Positions 35,045 through 64,000 of a DNA stretch of 64,000 nt are shown piece by piece. The translations under genes were made by a program, and so were the position numbers. Source of the DNA: Candidatus Dojkabacteria bacterium. Lineage in GTDB: Bacteria > Patescibacteriota > Dojkabacteria > B142 > WJKM01. The first letter of the stretch is position 1; each line of letters starts with the position of its first letter. The notes under the pieces are model-generated. The model was not told the origin of the DNA. It did no database searches and was given only the letters and a program-made list of their open reading frames with translations. Location of the stretch: assembly GCA_014729085.1 (NCBI GenBank), contig WJKM01000006.1, forward strand, positions 88,016 to 152,015. Direction: 5' to 3'.

Positions 35045-35067
35045 TATAAGAATTTAAATTTTAATAT

Positions 35068-35682
35068 TTGTTGATGTTTAACGAAAAAACTTTAGTAATT
35101 GCAAAGCATGATGCTGTCTCGAGAGGGATAGTCGGAGAAATTGTGAAGAGAATCGAAAGAGTAGGTTTCAAATTGCTTGCTTTTGAGATGATAGCGGCAA
35201 CCGAAGATATGGGGCTTAAGCATTATCCAGATAGTGAGGAGTGGAAGAAAAAAGTAGGAAATAGAACTTTAAAAGAATATAAAGAAAAGGGCATTGATCC
35301 AATTGAAAAGCTTGGTACGGCAGATGCTGTTGAAATAGGTGATCTCGTAAAACAATGGAATGTTGATTATTTAACATCTGGGCCAATAGTTGCCATGGTA
35401 TGGGAAGGGCCTAATGCAGTTAAGGTTGTACGAAAGATAGTAGGTGATACTGTACCTGCCAATGCTTTGCCAGGCACAATACGAGGGGATTTTAGCTGGG
35501 ATAGTCCGGAGCTTGCAAATGAACTTGGAAGACCTTTTTATAACTTAGTTCATGCATCAGGGGATGTAAACGAAGCTAATGATGAGATCAAACTTTGGTT
35601 CGAAGACTTAGAGGTTTTTGATTATGAGATTTCTGATAGTGAAGTAATGGGGCTAAAGTCTAGGTTGGGTGGGAAGAAATAA
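35068..35682 (+). CDS. Second, divergent nucleoside diphosphate kinase paralog.
   Basis: 'TLVIAKHDAVSRGIVGEIVKRIERVGFKLLAFEM', 'VHASGD' His, and 'SGPIVAMVWEG'. Confidence 0.7.
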   Translation: MLMFNEKTLVIAKHDAVSRGIVGEIVKRIERVGFKLLAFEMIAATEDMGLKHYPDSEEWKKKVGNRTLKEYKEKGIDPIEKLGTADAVEIGDLVKQWNVDYLTSGPIVAMVWEGPNAVKVVRKIVGDTVPANALPGTIRGDFSWDSPELANELGRPFYNLVHASGDVNEANDEIKLWFEDLEVFDYEISDSEVMGLKSRLGGKK

Positions 35683-41066: not shown

Positions 41067-42035
41067 TTATAGTTTAAAAAACATTTTTAAAATTTTTTTT
41101 GGGATTTGAAGGCTTTCTTTCATGTCTGCAAAGTAGTGTATATAAATATTCGGACATCCATTATTTTCGTTTATATATCCTCCTACTTTTTTGTAGGATT
41201 CATATATATTTTCAGTAATATAATCAATACCACACAGATTCAACTTGCTGTATTTGAAAACCTCAAGAAACATTTTCTTTGTATCAGGATGAATTTTTTT
41301 AATATCTATTCTTTTTGTTTCTCCTCCTAATGCGAAGTTACAGGTTGGACGTACTTCAACTTTATGCCCTTTTTTTAATACAGAGTTCAAGTTTAGCTTT
41401 TGATCTTGAAGGAAGTTTTCCACTGTTTTATCTACTTGAATTAATTTTAGTCTCAATTTTTCTCTTTCTTTGTTTTTTGACGCTATTAATTCTTTGATTG
41501 ATTTTTCTCCGTCTCCAATTACATATGGGGGAATTCTTTTTAGTACATCTAGAATCTTATTCCGGTAGATTAAAATTCGGTAATCTGTTCCTTTTACATA
41601 GTCTTCAACCAAAACCTTTTTCTTACCTATTAAAGAAACCTCTTGTATAGCAGGCTCGATTTCATCTGTGGAGTTTATGTTGACGGTAACACCTTTTCCT
41701 AAACTGGAATCCTCAGGTTTAATAACTACTGGAAAGTTTTGCTCACAATAACCAATGATTTTGTCGGTTTCGTCTATTTCGAACAATTTTTGTTTTGGGA
41801 CGGGAAGATCGTTCTTGTGTAGTATTCTGTAGGTTAGATGTTTGTTTTCAGCTGTCCGAATCGGGACATAGTTATTTACACCTAAAGTTATTCCTCGAAT
41901 ATATAGTTCCTTTTCATCATTATATATTCTACAGTAAGAATATTCCTTATCATATATTTCAATATTCAGTTTTAGCTTCTCGGCTGCAGAAAGATAAATA
42001 TCAGTATCAATATACGAAACTTTTTTTGCAATCAT
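41067..42035 (-). CDS. ATP-grasp amidoligase (RimK/cyanophycin-synthetase-like), paralog A, 322 aa.
   Basis: 'FPVVIKPEDSSLGKGVTVNI' (K-P-x-x-G-x-G ATP loop), 'YRILIYRNKILDVLKRIPPYVIGDGEKSIKELI', and 'NLCGIDYI' (Mg-binding region). Confidence 0.7.
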   Translation of the reverse strand: MIAKKVSYIDTDIYLSAAEKLKLNIEIYDKEYSYCRIYNDEKELYIRGITLGVNNYVPIRTAENKHLTYRILHKNDLPVPKQKLFEIDETDKIIGYCEQNFPVVIKPEDSSLGKGVTVNINSTDEIEPAIQEVSLIGKKKVLVEDYVKGTDYRILIYRNKILDVLKRIPPYVIGDGEKSIKELIASKNKEREKLRLKLIQVDKTVENFLQDQKLNLNSVLKKGHKVEVRPTCNFALGGETKRIDIKKIHPDTKKMFLEVFKYSKLNLCGIDYITENIYESYKKVGGYINENNGCPNIYIHYFADMKESLQIPKKILKMFFKL

Positions 42036-42041
42036 ATTGTA

Positions 42042-43010
42042 TTATTTAAAATATAGACTTAAGATTTTCATTGGAATTGTTATATTGTCTAGTTTATCTG
42101 CAAAATGGTGGATGCTTATTCCAGGATTATAGTTTACTTCATTTACACCAGAGGTAATTTCTTTATATGGTTTTTTGATGTCTGGAGATATGTAGTCTAT
42201 ACCGCAATGGTCTAAAAATAAGATTTTCTGTATTTTTTTGAAGAGATGCAGATTTTCTTTAGGTACTTCGTGTATATTTATTCTTCGGACCTCTCCTCCT
42301 TTTGAAAAATTACAGGAACTTCTAAGATAGATTTTAGAGCCTGAAGAGGGAATAGTTTTAAGGTCATATCCTTGTAAACTGATAAATTCATTTAAATGCT
42401 CATCTATAACTATTTTCGGCATAATTTTTTCTGTTCGGGAGTGATTTTTATCAAGAATTAATTCTTCTACTGTATTGTTGCCATTCCCTGTTATATAAGC
42501 AGGGATTCTTTCGAGAATATCAATAATCTTGCCTTGAAAAACTAAAATTCTATAATCTTTTCCTTTTATATGTTTTTCTAAGATCAATCTTTGCTTTCCC
42601 ATATCTTCAATAATTTTAATTGCGACATCTAGTTCTTCAGGATTTTGTATATTTGCAGTAACACCTTTTCCACATACTCCTGTTACTGGTTTAACCACAA
42701 CTGGAAAATTATTATTAGCAAGATTATGCATTTGATCTTTGTAATTAATATCAAAAACTTTACAGAAAGAGGGAGTAGGAATATTATTCTTAGTAAGAAA
42801 TTTATGTGTAGTATACTTATCTTTTGATATTCTACATGCTGAAATACTATTTATTCCCAGAGCAGCGTTTTGTATTAAAAGGTATTTTTTACCATTTCCT
42901 ATTTTGCATATACTTCGTTGAGTATCAAGTATCTCAAAATCTAGTCCAATTTCTTCTGCAGCCATTATATATAAATTGGTATGCCTACTTTCTGTAAAAG
43001 GTTTAATCAT
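42042..43010 (-). CDS. ATP-grasp amidoligase, paralog B, 322 aa, arranged in tandem with paralog A.
   Basis: 'FPVVVKPVTGVCGKGVTANI', 'YRILVFQGKIIDILERIPAYITGNGNNTVEELI' and 'DHCGIDYI'. Same length and collinear motifs with paralog A. Confidence 0.7.
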   Translation of the reverse strand: MIKPFTESRHTNLYIMAAEEIGLDFEILDTQRSICKIGNGKKYLLIQNAALGINSISACRISKDKYTTHKFLTKNNIPTPSFCKVFDINYKDQMHNLANNNFPVVVKPVTGVCGKGVTANIQNPEELDVAIKIIEDMGKQRLILEKHIKGKDYRILVFQGKIIDILERIPAYITGNGNNTVEELILDKNHSRTEKIMPKIVIDEHLNEFISLQGYDLKTIPSSGSKIYLRSSCNFSKGGEVRRINIHEVPKENLHLFKKIQKILFLDHCGIDYISPDIKKPYKEITSGVNEVNYNPGISIHHFADKLDNITIPMKILSLYFK

Positions 43011-43073
43011 ATGTCCTAATTAACTTAAATAAAGTGATTATTTATGAGATTCTCCTGAAATAAGGAGTATTAT

Positions 43074-45521
43074 TTATAAAGAGTAGTTTGCTTTTAGTAC
43101 TTTTTTTACATCTTTGATTGAAATAGGGGTGGAGGAGTCTGATGGTTTAGTAAATTCCATTAACTCATTTGGGTTTGCCTTCCCATTCCATAAATAGCCT
43201 AGGGATTTTGGGTTATTAACAATATATTGCCCAGTTTTTATGGCCCATTTCAAATAAAGATCTTTGGTAAAAGCTCCACTACTAGATGTATCTGATATAC
43301 CTCTCTTGAATCTTACTGTGTAGTTCCAAGCTTTGTTTTCGTCTTGGATGTATTTATATGCTTTGTTGTAAACAGCTTTAAAATCCGAAATCAAGGAGGT
43401 GTTCATTAATATAATAAGTAAGCTTGGGATTTTAAAGACTTTGTCTTTTTTTCTTGAGTGGCCTACTATTGTAGCTAGCCCTTCTTCTGTAATTATATAA
43501 CGTGGGGTACCTATTTTCCAAATTAATTCCTTCTTTTTCTTCCCATTATGCAGCCGTAATAAGTGTGTGAGTATTTCATGTCCTATTGCATTGTTTAGTT
43601 GATCTTCACTCCTACCACGGTTTTCTGGTAGTTTTATTCTTCCAGAACTTTTTCCTATAGACATTTTAGTTCTCTTATCGCTAAATTTAATAGGATAATC
43701 GAGTTTGTATTTGTCGAGAGCTTCCTGCATTCTTTTTCCTACTTCTCGGGCAGGGATCTCTGGATTCTTATCTATTGTTATTTTATGATTCTTAAGGATT
43801 TTTCTAGCAAGTCTCCTTATTTTACGGTTAGGTTGCCCAAAAAGTTCAATTGATCTTTGAGTAAAGGTATGTGGGTCATGTCCAATTGTTTCCATTAAAT
43901 ATACCATTTTTTTATATTCTTTAATTTTGTTTCTATAGATTCGTCCTATACTGTCAAATGGAGGATTTAAAAGTTCTAGTTTGTCAAGTATTTTATCTGG
44001 ATCAAATTTTAAAGGTTTGTATTCAAATTGTGGATTATAATCACAATTTTTCTTGAAAAACTTTTCTTTTTCTTCTTTAACATTCCGAGGTCTTAATGCA
44101 GGAATAATGCTTAATATTTTATTGAATTCTTCGAATGCTTCATCCAATTTTTTAATTTTAGTTGGTTTGAGCAATGCATAAATATTTTCTTTTAATTTAC
44201 TTTCCTCTGGACCCTCGATTTTTTTAACGTCAATTATGAAATTCCCTAGATCTTTTCTTCCTATTGACAGATTATAACCTTTGATTTGATCATTTATTAT
44301 CCTGCATTCACAATCAATTGTTTGATTGCCTAATTTTATTTTTATAAATACTATCTCGTACTCACCTTCCTCTACCTTTTCTTCCAGAATGCCAAGTTTC
44401 ATAGCTATTTGGGAACTAATGATCGAGGTTCTTCGGCTTGTATCAACCAAACTCATTGTTTGAACTTTTTTATCTTTGAAAATTATAGTCGCGGGCATTA
44501 TATTACTAATAATTTCTTTTCCAGAGATCCTTTCTATTTTTTCTTCAACTTCACCACCAAACAGATCTTTTCCTATTCTTATACCATGATCAGAATTTTT
44601 AACTTCCAGACCTTTAGCTTTATACAGTCTCCAAGCAAGGCCTCTTCTGTTTACTATTTGAATAGATAATCCGGGCCTTGCATTAAGTTCTACAATGACA
44701 GGTCCTTTTTCATTATCTATAAGGAAGTCAACAGCTCCAAAATTAAGTCCGGAAGCGTCAATAGCTTTAGAGGCGTATTTTAAGATTTCGTTCCAATGGG
44801 GAATTTCTAGTCCCTGGAATGGTAGTTTTGTTCCAGGTACAAATTCAATCGGATATCCTTTCCCCCCACTTCCTTTTCCATAAGTAGAAGTAGTAGTAAT
44901 GCCGCTTGCAAGGTCTATACCAGTACCAACAGCGCCTTTTATCATATTAGCCTTTCCTTTTGATTCTTTTGTAGGAAATCGAACATAGGCCATTATAGGA
45001 ATTTTATTGTATGTTACAACTCTTATATCGGGAGTTCCTTTATAAGTGTAGTTTTTTAGGTCATCATGTGTTCGTATTCTTTCCTCAAAAAAAGCTTGAT
45101 CCGGTTCGTTTCTAAGGGAATATTTTCCATCAAGTATTTCCAGGGCCATGCTTTTAATTTGATATGCAGATACTCTGCTACCATCGGATTTAATCCAATT
45201 TCCGTTTTTGTCTCTATTATAAAAAATTTCGATACCCGCTCCTTGTGCCCCCTGTACTGGTTTCATGACAAAACTTGCAGGTAATTTGTTCCAGTTGAAT
45301 GCTTCAAATTCTGAATAATCCTTTATGACTCCCAGTAATTCTGGTGAGGGAATATTTTCTGAAGCCAATATTTTTTTTGTAAGTAATTTATCGTCAGCAA
45401 TTTTCCTGCCTCTGGTATTACCTTCTTTTTGTATGAATAGTAGATTTCTCGCATTTTGTCCGAGAACCTTATTTCTATTCCTCAGTATTTGAAAGATTGT
45501 CATCTTCGTTTTTAGGATCAA
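43074..45521 (-). CDS. Tri-domain fusion: RimK-type ATP-grasp ligase, retropepsin-like (PF05618-type) protease, and MATCAP/DUF1704-like HExxH metallocarboxypeptidase.
   Basis: N-terminal domain: 'NARNLLFI...ADDKLLTKKIL', 'SFVMKPVQGAQGAGIEIF' and 'GAVDFLIDNEKGPVIVELNARPGLSIQ'. Middle domain: 'SLVDTSRRTSII...SIGRKDLGNFIIDV'. C-terminal domain: 'AIGHEILTHLL' (HExxH) and 'EEGLATIVGH' (QEGLA-type motif). Confidence 0.7.
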   Translation of the reverse strand: MILKTKMTIFQILRNRNKVLGQNARNLLFIQKEGNTRGRKIADDKLLTKKILASENIPSPELLGVIKDYSEFEAFNWNKLPASFVMKPVQGAQGAGIEIFYNRDKNGNWIKSDGSRVSAYQIKSMALEILDGKYSLRNEPDQAFFEERIRTHDDLKNYTYKGTPDIRVVTYNKIPIMAYVRFPTKESKGKANMIKGAVGTGIDLASGITTTSTYGKGSGGKGYPIEFVPGTKLPFQGLEIPHWNEILKYASKAIDASGLNFGAVDFLIDNEKGPVIVELNARPGLSIQIVNRRGLAWRLYKAKGLEVKNSDHGIRIGKDLFGGEVEEKIERISGKEIISNIMPATIIFKDKKVQTMSLVDTSRRTSIISSQIAMKLGILEEKVEEGEYEIVFIKIKLGNQTIDCECRIINDQIKGYNLSIGRKDLGNFIIDVKKIEGPEESKLKENIYALLKPTKIKKLDEAFEEFNKILSIIPALRPRNVKEEKEKFFKKNCDYNPQFEYKPLKFDPDKILDKLELLNPPFDSIGRIYRNKIKEYKKMVYLMETIGHDPHTFTQRSIELFGQPNRKIRRLARKILKNHKITIDKNPEIPAREVGKRMQEALDKYKLDYPIKFSDKRTKMSIGKSSGRIKLPENRGRSEDQLNNAIGHEILTHLLRLHNGKKKKELIWKIGTPRYIITEEGLATIVGHSRKKDKVFKIPSLLIILMNTSLISDFKAVYNKAYKYIQDENKAWNYTVRFKRGISDTSSSGAFTKDLYLKWAIKTGQYIVNNPKSLGYLWNGKANPNELMEFTKPSDSSTPISIKDVKKVLKANYSL

Positions 45522-46200
45522 TTAGTAAGTCATAGAAACGGAAATATTCAGTTAATCTTAATCCTGTGAATTTCCCAATAAATAGGTTTATAGGGATTAA
45601 TAGTATTATAACCCAAGGATAATTAAGGAGAATATTTTGTAGGGATTCATTTGCGATAATTGTTAAACATATACTTGTTATCAAAATACTTCTAATGATA
45701 ATTTGAAAAGTCTTTTTTATACCACTTTTAATATGCACTTTGAGTAATTGTTCTGAAATTATTATTAGGAGTACTACATTTAAAGGATTTATTTGAACTA
45801 ATAGTTGGTCTGAAAGTTTACGTGCTATTGCCATTACAATGAAGATAGCAATTGTTGATGAGATTAAAATTAGGGATATTTTAGGATAATAATGTAATTG
45901 AATTTTTTTCGTAAGTAGATATGAGATAAAAATTGCTGCATAGGATGAAAAAATCAAGAGTGTACCATAGCTAATTCCTAGAAACAGGTCAGGTTTATTA
46001 TTGAAAGTCAATGTACTTCCTAAGGAGTAAAAAAGGAAAATGGTAGCTATAGTTGCATATATGCTTATCGTTCTTAAACCAATCAAATATCTAAAGATAT
46101 TAATAACAGTCATTATCAAAGGAATAGAAAGGAGAAAGCTTAAAGTAATTATTGTTTCTTCTCCTCCTTGTAGGAGGGTTTCAATTAAAGGATGATACAT
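45475..46200 (-). CDS. Polytopic membrane protein with about 7 TM segments (7TM_transglut-like partner). Its 3' end overlaps the start of the fusion gene by 47 nt.
   Basis: Seven hydrophobic segments in 241 aa. First gene of the minus-strand ATP-grasp operon. Confidence 0.6.
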   Translation of the reverse strand: MYHPLIETLLQGGEETIITLSFLLSIPLIMTVINIFRYLIGLRTISIYATIATIFLFYSLGSTLTFNNKPDLFLGISYGTLLIFSSYAAIFISYLLTKKIQLHYYPKISLILISSTIAIFIVMAIARKLSDQLLVQINPLNVVLLIIISEQLLKVHIKSGIKKTFQIIIRSILITSICLTIIANESLQNILLNYPWVIILLIPINLFIGKFTGLRLTEYFRFYDLLIDPKNEDDNLSNTEE

Positions 46201-51218: not shown

Positions 51219-52109
51219 ATGAGTATAAATTTTGAAAATTTTCATGCACAGCCTATGTTCCAGGATCCAGATTATCCCGAGAGTATCTGGGATATTCCAA
51301 ATGGACAAGTGTATGGTACAACTGCTCATGTATCCTTGTCGAGAGATGAAGATGGATACAATATAGTAGCTGGTCCTGATTACTTAAAAGATGAATCCGG
51401 GGAGTTTGTGCCTTTTAATCCAGAGTACCCATATGTTGGAAGGGATGGAGAAGTGTATACCATTTCGGAAGATACGTTCGATGGGGAGTTAATTGATGAA
51501 CAAGATCTAAGCAGGGTTGCATATCAATATACTTACGGAGAAGGACTAAACGGATGGGCTACTAGGGATGTTTCGAGATACAATGCGAAAGAAGGATCAC
51601 CACTTCTATACTATCGAGTTAGTCATGGAGAAGTAGATGAGTCTGGTGAGCACGATTCTTATTTTGATGTTGCTGCAAGCTTGGAAAATGGATTTGAGCT
51701 GTTCATGAGGCACGACCCAGCTAACGATAATGTTGGGGGTTTATATGATGCAAACTTAACATACACCTCTAATGATACTGTCATAGCATGTCAAGGTAAT
51801 ATGTGTGAAGTGAGAGGAGCAAATGGAGATTTTGAGTTCCAAGTACCCGAAGTTTTGACAGACAACGATCCATGGGCAGCCACCAACTATGCAATCCATG
51901 TTTTGAATGGGTATGCTGAGTATGCAGATGAAATGGATTTTAGTGAACCAGGAAGTTTCGATGAATTTATTACACACCATCTGACTGTAAATGGCGCGAC
52001 TGGTTATCTTTTGGATAATTACTCCGAGATAGGTTTAGTAGATTCCCAAAGGATTCAGCTAGGTGATGATGTTGGTACGGGTGAATCAGTAAGGATGGAG
52101 GAGAACTAA
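51219..52109 (+). CDS. Acidic hypothetical protein (296 aa) of atypical composition.
   Basis: D/E/G/Y-rich. No signal peptide. Locally higher GC than flanking genes. Confidence 0.45.
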   Translation: MSINFENFHAQPMFQDPDYPESIWDIPNGQVYGTTAHVSLSRDEDGYNIVAGPDYLKDESGEFVPFNPEYPYVGRDGEVYTISEDTFDGELIDEQDLSRVAYQYTYGEGLNGWATRDVSRYNAKEGSPLLYYRVSHGEVDESGEHDSYFDVAASLENGFELFMRHDPANDNVGGLYDANLTYTSNDTVIACQGNMCEVRGANGDFEFQVPEVLTDNDPWAATNYAIHVLNGYAEYADEMDFSEPGSFDEFITHHLTVNGATGYLLDNYSEIGLVDSQRIQLGDDVGTGESVRMEEN

Positions 52110-52122
52110 ATTAATATTATAT

Positions 52123-52506
52123 TTGATGTCTAGAAAAATGAGCAATTGCCATGAAAATTATGCATCCAGTGTATATCTAGGAGATTTCCCAGTTAAAGGC
52201 GGCTTGGTAGAGGATTCAAGCAATCCCTTAGCCTGTTATGATACAGATGCAGGACCTAACCAGGATGATGGTTTTAAGCCATTTGAAGCGGGATGGGTTC
52301 ATGACCCCGAAACAGGCGAGACCCATCCCGATAGGTTACTTTCTAATGGGGTACTACTTGAGAGTTTTTGTAATGATGAAGGGGAATGGGAAGTTGGGAT
52401 GTATTGGTGTCCTGGAGAGGTTGATGAAATAGCTTTTAGTAATGGTGTGCATGCTTGGGAATGTGCTGAGATAGACGCGTATTTACCATTGGTTTTAAGC
52501 TGGTAA
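52123..52506 (+). CDS. Acidic hypothetical protein (127 aa).
   Basis: Co-directional with and 13 nt downstream of the previous gene. W/C/E-rich. Confidence 0.4.
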   Translation: MMSRKMSNCHENYASSVYLGDFPVKGGLVEDSSNPLACYDTDAGPNQDDGFKPFEAGWVHDPETGETHPDRLLSNGVLLESFCNDEGEWEVGMYWCPGEVDEIAFSNGVHAWECAEIDAYLPLVLSW

Positions 52507-54294: not shown

Positions 54295-55089
54295 TTACTT
54301 AAGATTCTCAGTGATTTCCCAGAATTGCCAGAATATTTGTTTCTGCATATTTGCGTATGACTTATTTATTATTTCCGTTCCGATCCTTTTTTTTTCTTTC
54401 CAACTAAAAATTGCTACTGTATCTTTATATATTACAGTCTGTTGTCTGATTTTTAAAATTTTTTTGGGAATATATCTTGATTCATAAAAATCAGGCCATT
54501 GTTTTAGGTCGGTATACCAGTATTCACCCTGATCTTTTGCATTTTCAAGTTCATAGCATTTTATTTGTCTTTTGATTTGTTCAAGTCTTGTTTTTTCTGC
54601 AAATTTTTTTCCTGCTAGTTCGTTTCTGGTTTCATATCCTAGGATCAGTATTTCTTTAGTACCTGAAGTGATTTCATTCCAAAGCATTTGTTTAAGTCCA
54701 TCTTCTCCTCGGTAGTTTTTAATTTGAAAATCCTCTGTTAAATTGTTTTTAATCTTATTAAGGTTTTTTACTAAATCTGAGAGTCCGTTCCGCTGAACTT
54801 TAATCTTTTCTTCTTTTTCTATAATCTGGATTTCTAAGTTTTCTGGGGGTGCGGCTTGGAAAGTTTTTTTGTCAAAGTTTATTTTTTCCTCTACTAGTTT
54901 TTTTTCTTTTAGATCATCTAGAGTCCTGTATGCCTTGCTTCTGTTTATTGTAGTTTCTCTTGAGATTTGTAATGGGGTTTTATTTCCATTTTGTAAGAGG
55001 TGGAAATATAGGCGAGCTTCATCTTCGTTTAAGCCAACATCCAATAATTTTTCAAACATGAGAGTTTTGTTCATCAATTTGGACAACAA
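54295..55089 (-). CDS. Second TrmB-like winged-helix regulator, a paralog of 21695..22474.
   Basis: 'LNEDEARLYFHLLQNGNKTPLQISRETTINRSKAYRTLDDLKEKKLVEE'. Confidence 0.6.
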   Translation of the reverse strand: MLSKLMNKTLMFEKLLDVGLNEDEARLYFHLLQNGNKTPLQISRETTINRSKAYRTLDDLKEKKLVEEKINFDKKTFQAAPPENLEIQIIEKEEKIKVQRNGLSDLVKNLNKIKNNLTEDFQIKNYRGEDGLKQMLWNEITSGTKEILILGYETRNELAGKKFAEKTRLEQIKRQIKCYELENAKDQGEYWYTDLKQWPDFYESRYIPKKILKIRQQTVIYKDTVAIFSWKEKKRIGTEIINKSYANMQKQIFWQFWEITENLK

Positions 55090-55147
55090 GATATATGAAT
55101 AATTATAAGTTACTATAATATATTACGAATGTCAAAGTATATATTTT

Positions 55148-56086
55148 GTGTTGATATTTGAACATCAGGTGCAATTTCTATTTTTTATTATAGAAAAGAT
55201 GAAGCTTAGCAAAAAACAATTAGGTATAGTAGCTCTTTTAGGGTATGCATTTTTAGCATCTACTATGGGAATTTTGGTGCGAGAAATGGATACAGTGTTT
55301 ACAAGTTTTCAGCAGGTTTACTTAAGGGCTTTTATTGGATTTTTATTTGCGGTTTTAATTTATCGTAAAAGAATTAATATTCAAAAGTTTAAAAAATTAC
55401 AGAGAAAGCAGTGGGGGATTTTGCTTCTTAGATCTTTGTCTCTTTATGTTTTTGGAGTCGTGCTTTTCTCGAAATCAATTGTTTTGACTACTTATAGTAA
55501 TGTCAATTTTATATTTGCAATCCCTTTTACTGCTATCTTGGGTTTTTTGCTTCTAAAAGAAAGGCTGAACATAAGAAAGTCAATCCTAGTTCTTTTAGCA
55601 TTTGTAGGGGTTTTGATAATATCTGTAGAGGATTTTACAAATATTTTCTCGGTAGGACTTGGAGAAACCTTGGCTTTCATTTCGGCCTTTTTTTATTCTT
55701 TCAGCTCAATACTGCGAAAGTTTCAGTCGAAGGAACTTAATAATCAAGAAATTACCGTAGCCATGCTTTTAATTGGTTCTACTATGGTTTTTATTACTTC
55801 CATATTTACTGGAAATGATTTCACAAACTTTGTAAACATAACACCTAGTGTACTCATTGCTTTAGTGATTGCTGGTTTATGGAACACTTTAATGGGTTTG
55901 TTTATTAATTATGGCTTTTCCAAAATCGATGCTGTGGTTGCAGGCAATATCATATTTATAGAAACGGTCTTTGCGGTTTTAATAAGTATTATTGTTTATA
56001 AGGAATTTCCAGATATATTTGAGTGGCTGGGTGCTCTTCTCGTTATCCTTAGTGCTTATTGGATGAATAAAGAGTCGGGAAATTGA
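55148..56086 (+). CDS. EamA/DMT-family permease (second copy).
   Basis: 10 TM segments with duplicated halves. Confidence 0.65.
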   Translation: MLIFEHQVQFLFFIIEKMKLSKKQLGIVALLGYAFLASTMGILVREMDTVFTSFQQVYLRAFIGFLFAVLIYRKRINIQKFKKLQRKQWGILLLRSLSLYVFGVVLFSKSIVLTTYSNVNFIFAIPFTAILGFLLLKERLNIRKSILVLLAFVGVLIISVEDFTNIFSVGLGETLAFISAFFYSFSSILRKFQSKELNNQEITVAMLLIGSTMVFITSIFTGNDFTNFVNITPSVLIALVIAGLWNTLMGLFINYGFSKIDAVVAGNIIFIETVFAVLISIIVYKEFPDIFEWLGALLVILSAYWMNKESGN

Positions 56087-56678: not shown

Positions 56679-57542
56679 GTGTTTATTATTAAAATGAAAA
56701 AGCATAAAAAAAGTTTTCTAATATTCATAGTAACTTTTACAGCCTTATTTATATTTAGATTGGCGTATGGATATATACAGCACCCCGAGCTGGATTTGTA
56801 TTCAGCTTCCAGTACCTACATTACATTTGATAATACAATCCGAAATATTGCTACTCAAAAGATGAAAAATATGGAAAGTAATGTAAATGATGCATTTGCA
56901 GTTGTTGAACAAAAATATGAAAAAATTTCTACAATAGTTTCTAAAACTACGGATTTTAAGAAAAATGAAACAAAAGTAAGAAGCATAATTGAGAAATTTG
57001 ATGCTTTGATACAGTATGAAAAAAGTAAGGGGAATCAGGGAGAAAGAGTTTTGGAATTCTCCATTGGAGTAAATCCTGAAAAATTTGACAGTATGGTAGG
57101 AGAATTAAAAAAAGTAGGAAAAATTGAATCAATAGAAGTAAATAAAATTGACAAAACTAACGAATATAAAGATCTTAAAGCTAAACAAAGTTCTCTTGAA
57201 GAGACAAAGAATTCACTTATTGAATTAAAAAATAGAGGGGGGTCTATTGATGAAATGATAAGGCTTGAAAATAGAATTTTAGAAATAGAGAAAGAAATTC
57301 AGGCACTTGGAGTCAGTCTTGGCGATTACGATGCTGAAAATGAGTTTTGCACTATACAGTTTGGGCTTACAGAGGTAAGCCAGCCTAGATCTGAATTTAT
57401 GTACAGAATCTTGACTGCATTCTCTTGGACTGTGAAATATTATGTTGTTTTAACTTTTAGCTTATTATTTCTAACGGCTACAGCGTTTTTTGCAGTCAAG
57501 GTTATCAAAGAGATAAAAAAGTTAAAGAAGGGAAAGGAGTAA
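56679..57542 (+). CDS. Bitopic coiled-coil protein (N-terminal and C-terminal TM helices), DUF4349-like architecture.
   Basis: TM helices at both ends with a long central coiled coil. Confidence 0.4.
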   Translation: MFIIKMKKHKKSFLIFIVTFTALFIFRLAYGYIQHPELDLYSASSTYITFDNTIRNIATQKMKNMESNVNDAFAVVEQKYEKISTIVSKTTDFKKNETKVRSIIEKFDALIQYEKSKGNQGERVLEFSIGVNPEKFDSMVGELKKVGKIESIEVNKIDKTNEYKDLKAKQSSLEETKNSLIELKNRGGSIDEMIRLENRILEIEKEIQALGVSLGDYDAENEFCTIQFGLTEVSQPRSEFMYRILTAFSWTVKYYVVLTFSLLFLTATAFFAVKVIKEIKKLKKGKE

Positions 57543-57997
57543 AGGTCTAATTAACTAACTAGGAAGCAGGGGTGCATATGAGTCCAAATGGACGTACAGT
57601 TAATGTTTTACCCGCAGTTGATCCATGGGGGTTTTGAGATACAGTTCTAATAGACCTCACATTAGAGTATTTCCCAAGAACCAGAATTTTCATCTTTTTT
57701 CATCATTGGGTTTAATAGATGTTGAATCAGGTTTAAATTTATGCAATAAGTTAGGAATTAAGAGCCGTTACTTTAGTAAAGGATTGGTGCATGATTAATG
57801 GAAGTAGTAAATGACCATGGTTGAACGAGTCCTGTAAGGTGGGTATGTCAAAGTTTGGCATTTTAACGAATTCACTTTTACTGGAGAAGCCGGAGAGCAT
57901 CAAAGTTTGAAGAAAACAGATCCCGTATAATTCACTCCGTTCGTTTGCGGAATTCTCAATTTTGTAATCGCTCACTATAGTTCGCAGACAAAATTGA

Positions 57998-58072
57998 GAG
58001 CTGAGACCGGGAGTCGAACCCGGGACCTTTCCCTTACCATGGGAATGCTCTGACCATCTGAGCTATCTCAGC
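57998..58072 (-). tRNA. tRNA-Thr (anticodon GGU) with an atypical T-arm: either an 8-nt T-loop or a 6-nt variable loop.
   Basis: Minus-strand read: GCTGAGATAGCTCAGATGGTCAGAGCATTCCCATGGTAAGGGAAAGGTCCCGGGGTTCGACTCCCGGTCTCAGCT. Confidence 0.75.
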
Positions 58073-58132
58073 GGTTGTTTATCAACGGTATAAATTATAT
58101 ACTAAATTAGCAGAAGTAGGGAAGTATTGTAG

Positions 58133-58501
58133 TTAAAATGGTTCTTCTTGGTTGTCTCCAAATAGTGCATATCTAACTGCATCAATTATGATGCCAATGA
58201 AAAAGTAAATGAGAAAACTAATTCCTATTGGAAATATAATCCATGGTGCTGAATATAATTTTTCTGGGTCTATATGTTTTAAGAAAAAACGACCTGGTAT
58301 TGTAAGCAGAGCAATAACCCAAAACTCTTTTGGGAAATATTGGGTAATATATTTGTCCACATCTTCGACTATTTCGTTCAAAATATATGAAATTATTGAA
58401 AATAAACAAATTTGGACAAAGAAAGTAAGAATAGTTATGGTAATTTTGTATTTTGATGGGGCGTCTTTGTTATTAAACATTTTTTTTAATTTAATATACA
58501 A
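58133..58501 (-). CDS. Small hypothetical membrane protein.
   Basis: Three hydrophobic segments in 122 aa. Confidence 0.4.
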   Translation of the reverse strand: MYIKLKKMFNNKDAPSKYKITITILTFFVQICLFSIISYILNEIVEDVDKYITQYFPKEFWVIALLTIPGRFFLKHIDPEKLYSAPWIIFPIGISFLIYFFIGIIIDAVRYALFGDNQEEPF

Positions 58502-58590
58502 CCTTAAAAAAGTTGAAATTGAGCATGGGGACAGATTGATTTGATTATACTACTATAGGGTTTGGGTGTGCAAGTTTATTTGAAGGTATA

Positions 58591-59343
58591 TTATATTTCT
58601 TCTTGGACAAATCTTCGAACCTTTTCAACGCTAATTTTTAGACTTTTGGATAGGTCATTTAAAAATACGTCTTCGAGGTTCTTTATAGTACTTTTTCTTC
58701 TTTTCCACAATGATGTATGAATAATGTGCCAAGCTTCTCTAATATAGGAGACAAACCAATCATTTTGTTTTTCAGTTTTGATTTTATGCAGCTTTTTGTG
58801 GCTGATTAAGGGAACAACTGCGATACGTTCTTGCCGAAATATGAAGTTTAAAATTACTTCAATTCCATATTTAGAGTTTTCAATTTCTGTTAAGGATTTT
58901 ATAATAAATTCTTTTTTAAGGCATCTTTGACCGCAAATAGGAAGAAGAACAAAAGCGATAGCTGGATTTTCAAGCGAGACATTGGGGCCGAGCGTCATGT
59001 CCACTTCGTCTTTTAATACCGGTTTTATTAGCGAAGAGAGATGATAAGGTTTTATGTTAATCATATCAGCATCCAAGAAAAGCAAATATTCATATTTGGA
59101 TTTTTTAATACCCTTTACTACTGCAAATCCCTTTCCTTTATTTTTTTTTAATTCAATAATTTTAGCTTGGTTTTTAAATCTATTTATAATTTCTTGCGTG
59201 TTATCTTTAGAACCGTCATTGATAACTATAACTTCTCCTATTTCCGGGGTTTGCAAGGCAGTTTTAATAACATCTTCAATGGTTTGAGATTCATTGTAAG
59301 CTGGAATGATGCACGTTGCCTTTTTTGCGAGTTTATTTTTCAT
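58591..59343 (-). CDS. Family-2 glycosyltransferase (Dpm1/GtrB-like polyprenyl-phosphate glycosyltransferase).
   Basis: 'CIIPAYNESQTIEDVI', 'VIVINDGSKDNT' and 'FLDADM' (DxD motif). Confidence 0.75.
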   Translation of the reverse strand: MKNKLAKKATCIIPAYNESQTIEDVIKTALQTPEIGEVIVINDGSKDNTQEIINRFKNQAKIIELKKNKGKGFAVVKGIKKSKYEYLLFLDADMINIKPYHLSSLIKPVLKDEVDMTLGPNVSLENPAIAFVLLPICGQRCLKKEFIIKSLTEIENSKYGIEVILNFIFRQERIAVVPLISHKKLHKIKTEKQNDWFVSYIREAWHIIHTSLWKRRKSTIKNLEDVFLNDLSKSLKISVEKVRRFVQEEI

Positions 59344-59511
59344 AATGGTTAATTATTTATTTTGAATATAGTTTTTGTCAAGTTTATTATTTTTTTACCC
59401 TAATTATTAGATATATAAATAAAAGTTGGTATAATCGCTTTTATTTGAAGTAAAATAGTAAACTAAACAATTTTCGGCAATTAATTTTTAGTTTATACAA
59501 TAAAATTTTTA

Positions 59512-59739
59512 ATGAAAGAAATTCCTCTATTTGATCCGAACAGGGAAAGTTGTAGATCATGTAGAAATTTTAAAATATGTGATGGACTTGGGATGTGCTG
59601 TGTGCTACCTACTGCAGAAAATCAGATTGACAGAGGCGGTTTAAGCCCAAGAGAATTTTCCAGGCTTATGCAAGAAGTAGGGAAACGAATAAGAAGATAT
59701 GGATGTGGAGGGTATGATTTAAGTGATTTGAATAAATAA
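59512..59739 (+). CDS. Small Cys-rich hypothetical protein (75 aa).
   Basis: Contains 'CRSCRNFKICDGLGMCC...YGCGG'. Falls in the region of elevated GC. Confidence 0.35.
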   Translation: MKEIPLFDPNRESCRSCRNFKICDGLGMCCVLPTAENQIDRGGLSPREFSRLMQEVGKRIRRYGCGGYDLSDLNK

Positions 59740-59845
59740 GCTATTGTTAAATTTAAATATGCAAATAAAATAAAAAGAAATATTTCATTGATCGAATAGA
59801 AAGTTTTTTGATATAATTATCCTATAATGTTTTATTATTTATGTT

Positions 59846-60340
59846 ATGGAGAATATATTGAGTAATTTAGCGGATAGGATTTTGGGGCCTGAAGATCCTT
59901 ATTATTTATATAGATGTACAGGCCCATCTCAAACAAATCAACCTCCAGGCGTATTATTGACACAAAAGGGTAAAAGATTGGATTGTAGTGCTTGTGGAGG
60001 GAATAGTCTCTGCACTCAAAACTGGGGACCTTGTGAAAGCATGAGTGGATTTAAATGTCCCGTTAGCTTAGTTGATCCTAGAAGTATGGATGCTGGATTT
60101 AGACCAGCAGCTCCGGCAACAGGAGAAGTTTCTCAAAAATTACAGGTTACTGGCCCTGGATCCACGGGTATTCCTCAAGTAAATCTTGAAGCTCGAAGAG
60201 GAGCATGGGAGGATTTACCTATTACAAATCTTCGAACGGCAATTAATTTAGGATATAATCCACCACCTGGGTTACGCCTAAAAGCATGGGCTAGTCAAGT
60301 TTTAGATTTACTCCCGGGTGATTTTTCAGTCTTTTCGTAA
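59846..60340 (+). CDS. Cys/Pro/Gly-rich hypothetical protein (164 aa).
   Basis: 'DCSACGGNSLCTQNWGPCESMSGFKCP'. No signal peptide. Confidence 0.4.
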   Translation: MENILSNLADRILGPEDPYYLYRCTGPSQTNQPPGVLLTQKGKRLDCSACGGNSLCTQNWGPCESMSGFKCPVSLVDPRSMDAGFRPAAPATGEVSQKLQVTGPGSTGIPQVNLEARRGAWEDLPITNLRTAINLGYNPPPGLRLKAWASQVLDLLPGDFSVFS

Positions 60341-60382
60341 TTATTACCAGAATTTTTTCGATTCACAGTATAAATATATAGT

Positions 60383-60694
60383 TTGATTATTATGGAACAG
60401 TATTCTTGCCCCTTTACATTTTTAGACCCTCCTTTTGCTGACCCAAGTGGTTTATGTTGGCTTCCAGATGCAAGTTGTTGTAGAGAAACAACATTAAACT
60501 TATTAGGGGGCACACAAGATGACCAGAAAAAATTTGCATTACAAATGCCTAATATTACTTGCAGCGGCATTGGATCTGATACTAGAATTGCAGGAATTCA
60601 TGGTGCATTGACTATTTTTAAATTGGATCATCCAGATCGTTATAATCAATTCTGCTCGCAGTTTCTAGAAGATAGAGATCCTCTGGAACAATGA
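60383..60694 (+). CDS. Cys-rich hypothetical protein (103 aa), an N-terminal paralog of 63565..63972(-).
   Basis: 'QYSCPFTFLDPPFADPSGL' here versus 'SYQIFLDPTLPTFPGIDSSL' in the other gene. Confidence 0.4.
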   Translation: MIIMEQYSCPFTFLDPPFADPSGLCWLPDASCCRETTLNLLGGTQDDQKKFALQMPNITCSGIGSDTRIAGIHGALTIFKLDHPDRYNQFCSQFLEDRDPLEQ

Positions 60695-60848
60695 GCATAT
60701 GCTTTGATTTCAGAGTGAATTTAATTCAGGATGAATACCAATTTCGGTTCTTCGTTTATAAATCTACATTCTTCCCAAATGAAAGTAAGCCATTCATGTA
60801 ATAATTTCAAACTTTGTATTAACGATTACATTTATTTGCGCTAATAAA

Positions 60849-61724
60849 TTGTGTATCATATTTATGAAATTATTTATCCTATCCAATATTGTGAGATTAG
60901 ATGAGTTTGCAATAAAAGTTTGGACTGTTTTGTTGGTTTTTGTTGGTATTTATATCGTATATGGAGCTGCTAAGCTTATTACGCTTAAGCAAGCAGAGAA
61001 GAAATATTCGCCTATAATTCAAGAAAAAGAACTGGCTCTGAGCTTTCTGAATCATGAAATATCAGAGCAGAATAACTATATTAAAACCCTGAATCTTGAA
61101 GTTAGTAATTTGACGGAGAGAGGGGTACAGTTAATTCAAACTAATAATAATTTAGAAGGAAGAATAGCAGGTTTGAATACTCAAAGAGAGCTTAGGTATC
61201 CATTTGATGTCCCGACCAAAGGAATAGTAGGCAGTTTTGCAGGAACATTTGGTGGTAATATGTACGGAATGAGGCATCTTGGAATTGATGTTTGGACAAC
61301 GATAGAGAATAATGGCAGAACTGAAAATAATTCCGGGAACCCTGTGTATGCTGCCTGTTCAGGGGTTGTGGACAATTCTGATAGACTTAATGGAGCAATA
61401 ACTATAAAGTGCGATCCTATACCTTCAAATTACAATGTTCCTGACCACAACGTTGATACTTATTATGCACACATGGGAAATGGCGTGTCGAAAAATTTGT
61501 ATATACAGGCAACACCGGGTAGAAGAGTGCAGAAAGGTCAGTTAATAGGATACCAGGGCAATATTAGTAAATTTTTTCCAAATATGCGTAATGTACATCT
61601 TCATTTCTCTGTTTTTGGAGGACTTTCTGAAGTCGATTCTAAAAAAGGTGCTTACAATCCGTGTCTTTATATTGGAGGTGATTGTAGAACAAGGGGGGCG
61701 AGATTTGTAACAAAATATGATTAG
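60849..61724 (+). CDS. M23 family peptidase with an N-terminal TM helix and coiled coil. Third M23 gene in the window.
   Basis: 'MRHLGIDVWT', 'YYAHMGNG' and 'VHLHFSVF'. Confidence 0.7.
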   Translation: MCIIFMKLFILSNIVRLDEFAIKVWTVLLVFVGIYIVYGAAKLITLKQAEKKYSPIIQEKELALSFLNHEISEQNNYIKTLNLEVSNLTERGVQLIQTNNNLEGRIAGLNTQRELRYPFDVPTKGIVGSFAGTFGGNMYGMRHLGIDVWTTIENNGRTENNSGNPVYAACSGVVDNSDRLNGAITIKCDPIPSNYNVPDHNVDTYYAHMGNGVSKNLYIQATPGRRVQKGQLIGYQGNISKFFPNMRNVHLHFSVFGGLSEVDSKKGAYNPCLYIGGDCRTRGARFVTKYD

Positions 61725-61773
61725 AATACATCGAAAGTGATATAATCTCAGTATAAATTTTAATGTTATTAAA

Positions 61774-61989
61774 ATGGAGAAGGCATATATTATAGACCCA
61801 AATTTCGCAAATATGCAAGATTATACCCCTGAAGGAATCCCGGTAGTTGGAAGAGTTCAAACTGGTGGGGGACCTTCAGTTTTAAATTTTTTTACTGGAG
61901 AGCCAGAAAAATTGCCTCCGGTAAGATTAGTAGATTCACCAGATAATCCGCCAGCTGATCAAGGGCCTACAATTAAATACTGTCCATAA
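61774..61989 (+). CDS. Small Pro/Gly-rich hypothetical protein.
   Basis: 71-aa ORF. Atypical composition. Confidence 0.3.
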   Translation: MEKAYIIDPNFANMQDYTPEGIPVVGRVQTGGGPSVLNFFTGEPEKLPPVRLVDSPDNPPADQGPTIKYCP

Positions 61990-62326
61990 ATCAACATCGG
62001 GCAGTATTTTCAATCTGTCTTAATCGGGGACTTGTGACTTCATTTGAAGGGAGTGTGATGGTAATGGTTTCTCTTATTGATGCTTCAGAACATATTTGCC
62101 TATTGCCACATAATTTACAAAGTCCGCCCGATAATACGCTCCGTGGATGAACTCCTGTTACATTGAAAATGGTCTCCTGTGGGCTTGTTTGTACTCTGGA
62201 TTCTACTAGTCTCATTTTTTTTTTGGATTTAAGATCCTCCAATTATATCAAGTATAAATCTTTCTCGATTTTATTATTTTCAAAAATTGTTATGATTTTT
62301 TAGTGAAATATTAATACATTAAGAAA

Positions 62327-62701
62327 ATGTCTATAAACGATGAAATAAGAATAACGCCAACTCCTATGAGGACAGATTTGGATGCACTTGAGGTTTTGCG
62401 AGGCGATCCTGAAATGCATGAAAGAATAAGACGCCATGCTGCACAAATTTTACAAGAAAGATTGCAAATGCAACCTCCTATATCTCTAAATTTCGGAGAA
62501 AGGGTTGCTGCTACTGCTTCAGGTAAATCTAGTTGGCCTGGGATCGAGCATGATCTACAGATGGCAATAAATGGAACATTGGAAGATTGTTTTGCAGGTG
62601 ATTTACCTCAAATAGATCAATATGGTTTTGATACGTTGCTTTTGGATCTTGGTGCACCACCAGAACTTTTTACTAGAAATAATAGGTTTTTATTGGAATG
62701 A
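62327..62701 (+). CDS. Hypothetical protein (124 aa).
   Basis: ORF only. No motif recognised. Confidence 0.35.
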   Translation: MSINDEIRITPTPMRTDLDALEVLRGDPEMHERIRRHAAQILQERLQMQPPISLNFGERVAATASGKSSWPGIEHDLQMAINGTLEDCFAGDLPQIDQYGFDTLLLDLGAPPELFTRNNRFLLE

Positions 62702-62740
62702 GAAGAAAATATTTCAAGTAAAGATTTTATCTTGAGAACT

Positions 62741-62947
62741 TCATTTTAAACAAATACACACTGGGGCAAGTGGTGGGGGGCTTTCCAAAAGAATCCTTCC
62801 ATGTGGGCCTAACATATATTGAACTAACTCGTCTGGCCTAAGTTCAGTATGGGTGAAAACCGGACGACCACATACTAAGTCAGCACAATAAATTTGTGTT
62901 GGAAAGCTTTCGGCTCCATCTATTCGTACAAAACCATCTTCTTCCAT
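62741..62947 (-). CDS. Small hypothetical protein, paralog family 'GFV-x-I...C-x-D-x-VCGR-x-V...TEL'.
   Basis: 'GFVRIDGAESFPTQIYCADLVCGRPVFTHTEL' here, versus 'GFVQISAAGEIPRITCQDTVCGRKVSSETEL' in 63171..63494. Confidence 0.4.
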   Translation of the reverse strand: MEEDGFVRIDGAESFPTQIYCADLVCGRPVFTHTELRPDELVQYMLGPHGRILLESPPPLAPVCICLK

Positions 62948-63170
62948 CTGGATTCCGCTTAAAGGAACTCCTAGTTTTTCTATATCACATCCGACAAATT
63001 GATGCCTTTTCCGCCATAGTTCCGGGTCTCCTACAAATATTTAATTTGGGACTATTTTCTGTTTCCATATTGTTTTTTCTATGTTTTATTGAAACTTTCT
63101 GATTATATTAAATAGAGAACGTTTTTATCTTGTAGTTAATGAAAGTATAAAATTTTACGATATTAGGGGT

Positions 63171-63494
63171 TCAAATTTTTGCAAGTATACGTATGGGAGG
63201 AAGAGGGCCGGCCCTATAAACCATAATTTTACTACTTGGACTTGCAACAAATTTCACTGTGTCTCCAGTTCCTAATTCAGTCTCAGAACTTACTTTTCTG
63301 CCACATACAGTATCTTGGCAGGTTATTCGGGGTATTTCACCAGCAGCGCTTATTTGAACAAATCCATCTGGTGTTAGATCAATTTGAGGTAAGGGGGCTT
63401 TTAAAGACTCAGGTGGAATAGCTTGAGGGACAAAGTATCCTTGCTGCCATGCATCTGGATGTCCCGTATCTACTTGTAATAAAAAATATTCCAT
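63171..63494 (-). CDS. Small hypothetical protein of the same paralog family.
   Basis: See the 62741..62947 entry. The motifs are collinear. Confidence 0.4.
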   Translation of the reverse strand: MEYFLLQVDTGHPDAWQQGYFVPQAIPPESLKAPLPQIDLTPDGFVQISAAGEIPRITCQDTVCGRKVSSETELGTGDTVKFVASPSSKIMVYRAGPLPPIRILAKI

Positions 63495-63564
63495 GATTTT
63501 GATTGATTAACTAATAGAAGTAATACTTAGGAGTTATCGCTATTTCGAATACAGTTTAATATAT

Positions 63565-63972
63565 CTAACCATTCCTATTGTCAATTTTCATATTGCAATT
63601 AATAATGCCCTCTTTTCTCCAATGATCTAGTTGAGGATCAGTTAGTGATACATCCTCAGGTGCAACAAAAAGTTTTCCTTGGCTAAATTCGGCAACCGGA
63701 CAACCTCCACAAACAGGCAATTGGCCCTCATAGATTCTATTATATCCGTCATTTCCTTTTTCTAGATGGGGTTGAATTAAAACTGATGGTCTATGAGTTA
63801 AATTCCCACAATATGAAGAGCATTCTCTGCAAGGAGTAGGGCTATTGTGGCCATATGGAGAATTTCCAGTTAGAGTAACTTTGCCAATGTTTTTGTACAA
63901 ACTGGAATCTATACCTGGAAAAGTAGGTAAAGTTGGATCTAAAAATATTTGGTAACTTGGGTCTGTTTCCAT
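63565..63972 (-). CDS. Cys-rich hypothetical protein (135 aa).
   Basis: 'PCRECSSYCGN...PVCGGCPVAEF'. 'FLDP' N-terminus shared with 60383..60694. Confidence 0.4.
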   Translation of the reverse strand: METDPSYQIFLDPTLPTFPGIDSSLYKNIGKVTLTGNSPYGHNSPTPCRECSSYCGNLTHRPSVLIQPHLEKGNDGYNRIYEGQLPVCGGCPVAEFSQGKLFVAPEDVSLTDPQLDHWRKEGIINCNMKIDNRNG

Positions 63973-64000
63973 TTGTGCTAGTCGTAAAAAGGGATTATAA

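Follow-up and report, generated by a model that had tools for sequence, protein, structure and literature searches.

Nine small hypothetical genes around an M23 peptidase gene in a Candidatus Dojkabacteria genome

The locus and its genes

We analysed a 64-kb stretch of a metagenome-assembled genome (MAG) of a Candidatus Dojkabacteria bacterium (assembly GCA_014729085.1, contig WJKM01000006.1, forward strand, positions 88,016 to 152,015), referred to below as the window. The last part of it, positions 59500-64000, is called the island here, and the rest of the window the backbone. The island holds nine small open reading frames (ORFs), designated A to I; A, B and C lie to the left, and D to I to the right, of a gene for an M23 peptidase (Table 1). 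All nine products are hypothetical proteins in the NCBI annotation (GF362_01935 to GF362_01980). The window as a whole is core chromosome. It is AT-rich, with a G+C content (GC) of 32.9% outside the rRNA genes, and carries 23S and 5S rRNA and four tRNA genes (found with ARAGORN and Rfam) together with housekeeping genes for S1, Clp ATPase, RadA, Rho, MreB, L1/L10/L12, ComEA/ComEC, thymidylate kinase and nucleoside-diphosphate kinase. Every gene that we looked up proved to be a singleton at 90% identity, including that of the backbone glycosyltransferase next to the island; the collection thus contains no close relative of the genome, and being a singleton is not special to the island.

An earlier, sequence-only reading of this DNA had described an island of small Cys-rich ORFs with an embedded M23 peptidase. 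The ORFs it listed are where it had placed them, and the Cys-rich strings it quoted are present. Three starts in the NCBI annotation stand against those of the mechanical ORF list: 60392 for C, 62215 for E and 60864 for the M23 gene. The NCBI start of C is an ATG, and the TTG at 60383 is probably not used.

Table 1. Features of the island and its left flank (window coordinates; aa, amino acids)
Feature	Position	Strand	Size	Accession or evidence
A	59512..59739	+	75 aa	MBD3362454, hypothetical
B	59846..60340	+	164 aa	MBD3362455
C	60392..60694	+	100 aa	MBD3362456; exact NCBI product
D	61774..61989	+	71 aa	MBD3362458
E	61991..62215	-	74 aa	MBD3362459; ATG at 62215; exact NCBI product
F	62327..62701	+	124 aa	MBD3362460
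G, paralogue of H	62741..63040 (annotated CDS 62741-62947)	-	68 aa (annotated CDS)	MBD3362461
H	63171..63494	-	107 aa	MBD3362462
I	63565..63972	-	135 aa	MBD3362463
M23 (LytM-type) metallopeptidase	60864..61724 (ORF list 60849)	+	286 aa	PF01551
GT2 glycosyltransferase	58591..59343	-	250 aa	MBD3362453; PF00535 E 6.5e-27, 94.9 bits
tRNA-Thr(GGT)	57998..58072	-		ARAGORN, Rfam

The products of A-I are 68-164 aa long, with isoelectric points from 4.4 to 9.4. Protein A has an N-terminal LFDP, then CRSCRNFKIC (a CxxCx5C arrangement) and then CC, with six Cys in total; the GC of its gene at codon positions 1, 2 and 3 (GC1, GC2 and GC3) is 0.42/0.45/0.24, and its synonymous codon usage lies at z=+0.97 relative to the backbone expectation. 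B starts with ME and contains CSACGGNSLC (CxxCx5C); its C-terminal half is rich in Pro (10%). Both C and I start with ME and have FLDP at residues 10-13; C contains six Cys, and I contains CRECSSYC and VCGGC, possibly a zinc-ribbon-like pair of knuckles. D, also with an ME start, has IIDP at residues 6-9 and 17% Pro, and its C-terminal LPPVRLV is like LPPIRIL of H by eye and in the MAFFT alignment, a likeness that is statistically not significant. E, which carries CKLCGNRQIC (CxxCx5C), is convergent with D, the two stop codons being 1 nt apart. F is acidic, with one Lys and one Cys, and its RGDPEMH resembles a VGDPELW encoded upstream of G. H starts with ME and contains the motif DGFVxI...CxDxVCGRxV..TEL...PLPP. 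We found no hydrophobic N-terminal or transmembrane segment in A-I (the maximum Kyte-Doolittle mean over 19 residues stays below 0.9), which bears out the earlier remark that none has an obvious signal peptide; the nine genes are thus predicted to encode soluble proteins without hydrophobic segments.

We compared the base composition of the island with that of the backbone. At 36.0% GC against 32.9% elsewhere, the island ranks top of 209 non-rRNA segments of 4.5 kb (mean 32.8%, s.d. 1.0%). The sequence-only reading had put the difference at about 40% against 30-33%; its direction is right, and its size is not. The bodies of the small ORFs have 37-43% GC, in sharp contrast to the spacers between them (16-31%). 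Within the ORFs GC1 is 0.42-0.58 and GC2 0.41-0.52, whereas GC3, at 0.20-0.29, is the same as in the backbone (0.26±0.04 for 46 genes). Since the excess is found only at codon positions 1 and 2 and GC3 is host-like, the extra GC is a matter of amino-acid composition. Compared with the backbone, the small proteins are rich in Pro (9.4% vs 3.5%), Cys (3.9% vs 0.6%), Gly (8.3% vs 6.1%) and Arg (5.9% vs 3.9%) and poor in Lys (3.5% vs 9.5%). Furthermore, a synonymous-codon score conditioned on the amino-acid sequence placed A-I at z = -0.9 to +1.5 relative to the backbone expectation. A local GC bump in an AT-rich genome may be pure amino-acid composition, and GC3 and synonymous usage should be checked before transfer is inferred from it; with both of them host-like here, the compositional case for a recent transfer fails on a check that the sequence-only reading had itself proposed.

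In each of the nine small ORFs, the third codon position of the annotated frame has the lowest GC (chance ~5e-5), and this, together with the host codon preferences in frame, shows that the ORFs are real: A-I are nine protein-coding genes with host synonymous codon preferences. It is highly improbable that they are annotation artefacts, that is, ORFs arisen by chance where the DNA is non-coding or decayed and somewhat richer in GC. In favour of this, gene callers are known to go wrong on short orphan ORFs, no credible homologue of A-I has turned up, structure prediction gave nothing usable, and the start region of G is lost. However, in addition to the codon-position pattern and codon usage, the GC contrast between ORF and spacer, the substitutions between G and H, which have the pattern of protein-level constraint, and the length of B (a stop-free run of 164 codons at 41% GC has a chance of ~2e-5, as estimated from base composition) all argue against it. 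The idea of one large gene, broken or read through by stop-codon recoding, was rejected as well: although B and C are in the same frame, an AT-rich spacer and two TAA codons separate them, and the low GC given above holds for every gap between the small ORFs.

In a genome under AT mutation pressure, fast-evolving proteins should drift towards Lys, Asn and Ile; the composition of A-I suggests that it is selected instead. As it persists in a 33% GC genome despite quick divergence, it is probably kept by selection. Three further ORFs in the window, at 51219-52109 (+), 52123-52506 (+) and 8-2476 (+), have no Pfam or NCBIfam match and an island-like signature: they are Lys-poor and acidic, with GC1 of ~0.55 and GC3 of 0.27-0.33. 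The first of them, of 296 aa, starts MSINF...MFQDPDYP, which recalls both F (MSIND...) and the DP motif. Unusual composition of this kind thus extends beyond the island.

Paralogy, shared motifs and homology searches

All-against-all BLASTP of the small ORFs gave one significant pair, G and H (40% identity over 65 aa, E 1.5e-13), and no other. In Smith-Waterman comparisons, scored against 300 shuffles, the G/H alignment reached z=25.8 when the DNA upstream of G was included. The sequence-only reading had proposed two paralogue families. Its pair sharing GFV..C.D.VCGR.V..TEL (62741- and 63171-) is the one now seen to be truly homologous, whereas its FLDP family (60383+, 63565- and perhaps 59846+) gave no significant pairwise alignment, only the short motif being enriched.

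The likeness of G to H runs past the annotated ATG of G: tblastn of H against the window found 63034-62744 (37% over 99 aa, E 1.7e-14). The 93 nt upstream of G (62948-63040) are in frame, and 11 of 27 aa (41%) are identical to H, which is as similar as the rest of G. This extension starts directly after a TAA and is devoid of ATG, GTG and TTG codons. On these features, G would be either a recently 5'-truncated copy or a gene with a non-canonical start, for example an ATT just after the stop. In a codon-level alignment of G and H, nucleotide identity was 0.50/0.66/0.38 at codon positions 1, 2 and 3; this order, with position 2 above 1 and 1 above 3, indicates an old duplication under protein-level constraint. 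The possibility that the small genes are targets of a diversity-generating retroelement was rejected: DNA repeats in 57000-64000 do not exceed 32 nt, G and H share only 38-66% of their nucleotides depending on codon position, and the window ORFs that were scanned include no reverse-transcriptase domain.

Beyond this pair, the small proteins share three short motifs. Within their first 16 residues, A, C, D and I (4 of 9) carry the pattern [FLIVM][FLIVM]DP, which is present in 0 of 46 backbone proteins and in 3 of 1557 ATG-initiated ORFs outside the island; three or more proteins with it were never reached in 20000 shuffles. An ME start is seen in B, C, D, G, H and I (6 of 9) as against none of 35 backbone genes with an ATG start (Fisher p=1.2e-5) and 80 of the 1557 ATG-ORFs. 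CxxCx5C is present in A, B and E (3 of 9; backbone 0 of 46; ATG-ORFs outside the island 8 of 1557), and again at least three was never obtained in 20000 shuffles. In the MAFFT alignment, eight of the nine proteins have their (D/H)P motif in the same block of columns, and Cys knuckles form a block after it. The CxxC(G) knuckles in the set are CSACGG in B, CKLCGN in E, CRECS and VCGGC in I, and CxDxVCGR in G and H. The three motifs were defined after the sequences had been seen, which makes the p-values optimistic; even so, the enrichment appears too strong to dismiss. The shared motifs may be what is left of a common ancestry in a family that diverges very fast.

We searched for relatives of A-I in family libraries and sequence collections. 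No significant match was found for any of the nine in Pfam, PHROGs, NCBIfam or PADLOC; NCBIfam gave three far-sub-threshold matches (E 0.035-0.095, 11-14 bits against cut-offs of 35-500). A profile of G and H, run against 1.84 billion representative proteins, returned besides G and H only three long repeat proteins. These matches, to SprB-repeat, leucine-rich-repeat and TIL-domain proteins, are artefacts in which 3 to 7 weak matches of the type DGFVRIDG are summed. I found only itself among 5.8 billion proteins and had no match in the Protein Data Bank (PDB). Searches with B in JGI metagenome contigs, IMG/VR, INPHARED phages and PDB sequences gave no relative, nor did a search of PDB sequences with A; scans of IMG/VR with the G/H profile, C, F and I gave none, and blastn of the whole island against INPHARED phages gave no match. 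The tested small proteins thus appear to be without a credible homologue elsewhere. A literature search found no match for the FLDP N-terminal motif and nothing relevant for Dojkabacteria combined with 'cysteine-rich'.

WhiB-like Fe-S proteins (C-Xn-C-X2-C-X5-C) were considered and rejected: A-I have no Pfam match at E<=0.01, and, as read from the sequences, the CxxCx5C of A, B and E comes without the canonical first Cys of WhiB, and the G[VI]WGG turn is absent. A SPASM-like identity was likewise rejected.

The M23 gene, the flanks and the origin of the cluster

The M23 peptidase in the middle of the cluster differs from its neighbours. Its PF01551 score is 33.9 bits against a cut-off of 28.7, and the protein has an N-terminal membrane anchor, then a coiled-coil-like linker, and a backbone-like amino-acid composition. 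We found 41 homologues at E <=1e-28, all with PF01551, the best non-self match being 57% identical; in an alignment of 20 sequences, the Zn ligands H138/D142 (HxxxD) and H245/H247 (HxH) and four Cys are invariant. Judged by these data, it is a conserved, catalytically intact native Dojkabacteria cell-wall peptidase and not a member of the small-ORF family. The sequence-only reading thus identified the enzyme at 60849..61724 correctly; its gene is not cargo of the island. Two further M23 genes lie in the window, at 18775-19893 (+) and 20023-21237 (+), one SLH-M23 and one LysM-M23, which makes three in all.

We compared the locus with 17 related loci that carry M23 orthologues (147 kb in total). 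The neighbours of M23 differ among distinct loci: SpoIID and a recombinase; GatCAB and a sortase; a RimK-like gene and elongation factor P. In several related loci the neighbourhood consists of rpoB with three small membrane genes. By tblastn, no sequence similar to the small ORFs was detected in any of the 17 loci. That the neighbours vary and none includes the small ORFs argues for a native M23 gene and for small genes that accumulated in this lineage. M23 would thus sit at a rearrangement-prone position, where, among the loci compared, small genes gathered on both sides in this lineage only.

In several related genomes (loci L040, L041, L042 and L051) the M23 orthologue is divergent from the three small membrane-protein genes and rpoB, an arrangement absent at the M23 gene of the window, which points to a rearrangement in this lineage. 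In L041 (10841-11296, +), and the same in L042 (JGI Ga0209976_10000985 / Ga0114923_10001249), a 151-aa ORF directly follows the M23 orthologue. It has GC1/2/3 of 0.53/0.50/0.28, is Lys-poor and contains two CxxC, with no sequence similarity to the island ORFs; orphan genes of the island type may recur beside M23.

On the left, the island is flanked by a gene for a family 2 glycosyltransferase (GT2) and, farther out, by tRNA-Thr, 1.4 kb from position 59500; the sequence-only reading had noted both, placing the tRNA about 1.5 kb away. The GT2 is generic and of backbone composition, with no tie to the small ORFs. Its scores stay far under all NCBIfam equivalog cut-offs, and its full-length identity to the best relatives in GTDB genomes does not exceed 33%. 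We rejected it as a peptide S-glycosyltransferase of the SunS type (TIGR04195), as it scores 28.7 bits against 350 and has 250 aa against 421 model positions. Between the DUF4349 gene and tRNA-Thr lies a gene-free gap of 455 nt (57543-57997) with short ORFs only, GC-richer than typical spacers. It shows no excess folding energy (z +0.65 and +1.37 on the two strands), and neither the gap nor the island has an Rfam match at E<=1. The gap may be a decayed gene.

The sequence-only reading had proposed a horizontally acquired or fast-evolving accessory module. We consider it unlikely that the block is an old acquisition (prophage, integrative element, or plasmid cargo or remnant), possibly from a GC-richer donor, the synonymous sites of which have since drifted. 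There are many short orphan genes on both strands, each behind an AT-rich spacer, with an amino-acid make-up typical of GC-richer genomes; the spot is poorly syntenic and close to a tRNA gene, and the related locus L037 has a tyrosine recombinase two genes from M23. The island also seems to run off the window, and hallmark genes could lie beyond. However, GC3 and synonymous codon usage are fully host-like, and in the visible part (57000-64000) there is no integrase, phage or transfer gene, no flanking direct repeat above chance and no repeat of the tRNA sequence. The 3' end of a tRNA gene is the usual target of integration, and that of tRNA-Thr (57998) points away from the cluster, unlike in canonical tRNA-targeted integration. 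The viral and defence collections gave nothing either: PHROGs and PADLOC for A-I, IMG/VR for the G/H profile, B, C, F and I, and INPHARED for the island DNA and B. In addition, a conserved native M23 gene occupies the middle of the cluster, and similar composition is found elsewhere in the window (8-2476 and 51219-52506). Horizontal acquisition is, therefore, not supported by composition, repeats or the tRNA. The other half of the proposal, a fast-evolving module, is supported by the lack of credible relatives in the searches made, by the absence of the small ORFs from the 17 M23 loci and by the age of the G/H duplication.

We thus favour, at a probability of about one half, the reading that A-I form a family of small soluble proteins that is specific to this lineage, diverges rapidly and may bind metal. 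Several points weigh against it. Only G/H (exhaustively) and I (by word index) were subjected to deep homology searches; B was covered by pattern-based scans of metagenome and viral contigs and by the phage and PDB searches, A, D and E by family libraries and local tblastn only (A also by PDB sequences), and C and F by family libraries and local tblastn plus the viral pattern scan. Besides G/H no pair is significant, the best of the 36 pairs being A-B (z 3.1) and B-E (z 2.8), and the idea of a single superfamily rests on motifs picked post hoc. AlphaFold2 models were unusable, with a mean confidence (pLDDT) of 43.5 for H, modelled with G, and 31.1 for I. The nearest relatives have at most 57% identity in M23, so that absence from their loci cannot separate gain here from loss or divergence elsewhere. 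Furthermore, the right edge of the island probably lies beyond the window, and genes of a mobile element or for maturation may stand just downstream. Finally, an old transfer from a GC-richer donor, with the synonymous sites adapted, would yield the same codon-position pattern.

Several features of the window lie apart from the island. A four-gene block at 41067-46200 (-) comprises two tandem 322-aa ATP-grasp genes, an ATPgrasp_ST-MATCAP fusion and a gene for a 7TM_transglut membrane protein. At E 1e-57 to 1e-63, well short of the equivalog cut-offs, the two ATP-grasp proteins match the ATP-grasp part of cyanophycin synthetase and RimK, and the MATCAP part of the 815-aa fusion is tyrosine-carboxypeptidase-like; from these matches the block looks like a peptide-ligase/peptidase module. 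The 23S and 5S rRNA genes (3930-7223, +) are preceded by a gene for an 822-aa protein and not by 16S, and the rRNA operon appears to be split. A TrmB-family regulator gene occurs near an EamA transporter gene twice (21695-24576 and 54295-56086), and two tandem nucleoside-diphosphate-kinase paralogues are found at 34400-35682.

Possible functions and comparison with known systems

If A-I are one lineage-specific family, it would have expanded around M23 through local duplications and inversions, with divergence quick enough to leave only the ME start, the hydrophobic-hydrophobic-Asp-Pro element and the CxxC(G) knuckle in place, the unusual composition probably being maintained by selection. The sequence-only reading had suggested small metal- or redox-binding proteins or toxin-like effectors; of these roles, metal binding is made plausible by the CxxC motifs. 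The likeliest mode would be a small module in which Cys knuckles hold a metal, probably Zn, joined to flexible segments rich in Pro and Gly. Such proteins may act by binding partners, in a role that, as a guess, would be regulatory or conflict-related (phage or host) rather than enzymatic.

Two more specific functions were weighed. The first is that the small proteins are exported or injected effectors, with the N-terminal motif as a non-classical targeting signal and the Lys depletion protective in a host cell. Bacteria of the candidate phyla radiation (CPR) are generally thought to be symbionts, which fits such a role, as do the enrichment of the N-terminal motif, the avoidance of Lys (3.5%, against 5.9% Arg) and the small, Cys-rich and quickly diverging nature of the proteins. 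However, A-I have no signal peptide or hydrophobic segment, no secretion-system genes were found near the cluster in the annotated window, and the motif matched no known secretion signal in a literature search; as the reading is also purely inferential, we regard it as very doubtful.

The second, which we judge slightly less probable again, is that they are precursors like those of ribosomally synthesized and post-translationally modified peptides (RiPPs), with an N-terminal recognition motif (ME followed by hydrophobic-hydrophobic-DP), hypervariable Cys-rich cores and modifying enzymes outside the window. Across several adjacent small genes the N-terminal motif, four residues in four of the nine proteins, is indeed kept and the Cys-rich remainder variable; the Cys motifs of B and I are weakly, below threshold, like radical-SAM families (E 0.035 and 0.095), and genes for a peptidase, a GT2 and ATP-grasp proteins are present in the window. 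Several points disfavour the idea. The M23 peptidase is a conserved cell-wall enzyme with orthologues in genomes that lack A-I, the GT2 is not SunS-like on the score given above, and the ATP-grasp genes are of the cyanophycin-synthetase/RimK type and 14 kb away, with ribosomal protein genes between. Neither radical SAM nor LanB/C/M, YcaO or another RiPP enzyme was found among the window ORFs that were compared with Pfam, which were all but a few. The remainders, and with them the putative cores, have 60-150 aa, far above typical RiPP cores; the genes are on both strands, and inspection by eye revealed no known leader cleavage motif, double-glycine or other.

A broader version of these ideas would make A-I a new Lys-depleted, Cys/Pro-rich mini-protein family of one Dojkabacteria lineage, with the N-terminal tag as an export or targeting address or as the recognition site of a maturation enzyme, engaged in an arms race with host or phage. 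We see this as a long shot. As such the find is ordinary: small hypothetical proteins abound in CPR MAGs, blocks of hypothetical genes with a restricted taxonomic range are common in CPR genomes, and nothing here points to a mechanism as yet. Mildly interesting are the composition against mutation bias, the shared N-terminal motifs and the unusual bias to ME starts. If the favoured reading is true, the cluster would be a compact case of an ultra-small CPR genome making and keeping lineage-specific genes, and a composition held against AT mutation pressure would suggest selection and, therefore, function.

The cluster can be compared with four known systems. The M23 protein is like LytM/EnvC-type M23 peptidases in its PF01551 domain, its invariant HxxxD and HxH and its anchor with coiled-coil-like linker, with nothing unusual. 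The A-I cluster resembles tRNA-associated genomic islands in having a tRNA gene nearby, many hypothetical genes and a local GC deviation; unlike them, its visible part is without integrase and att repeats, its codons are host-like and the 3' end of the tRNA faces away.

Small one-domain zinc-finger proteins (CPxCG-type 'micro-proteins') are known from archaea and bacteria. They share with A-I a length of 60-160 aa, CxxC/CxxCG knuckles and the lack of an enzymatic domain. In contrast, A-I have no Pfam or NCBIfam zinc-ribbon match, most of them have one clear knuckle, and their metal binding is a prediction.

In a survey of prokaryotic orphan genes, the GC of orphans closely matched that of conserved genes, which was taken to speak against an external origin for most of them, and orphans used optimal codons less often (Vakirlis & Kupczok 2024, PMC11293555). 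Like these orphans, A-I have no detectable homologues outside the lineage, are short and probably rich in disorder, and have the GC3 of conserved genes. They differ in that nine of them form a dense cluster with shared motifs and one clear duplicate pair, in that their overall GC exceeds that of conserved genes through amino-acid composition, and in that their synonymous codon usage is not weaker than that of the backbone.

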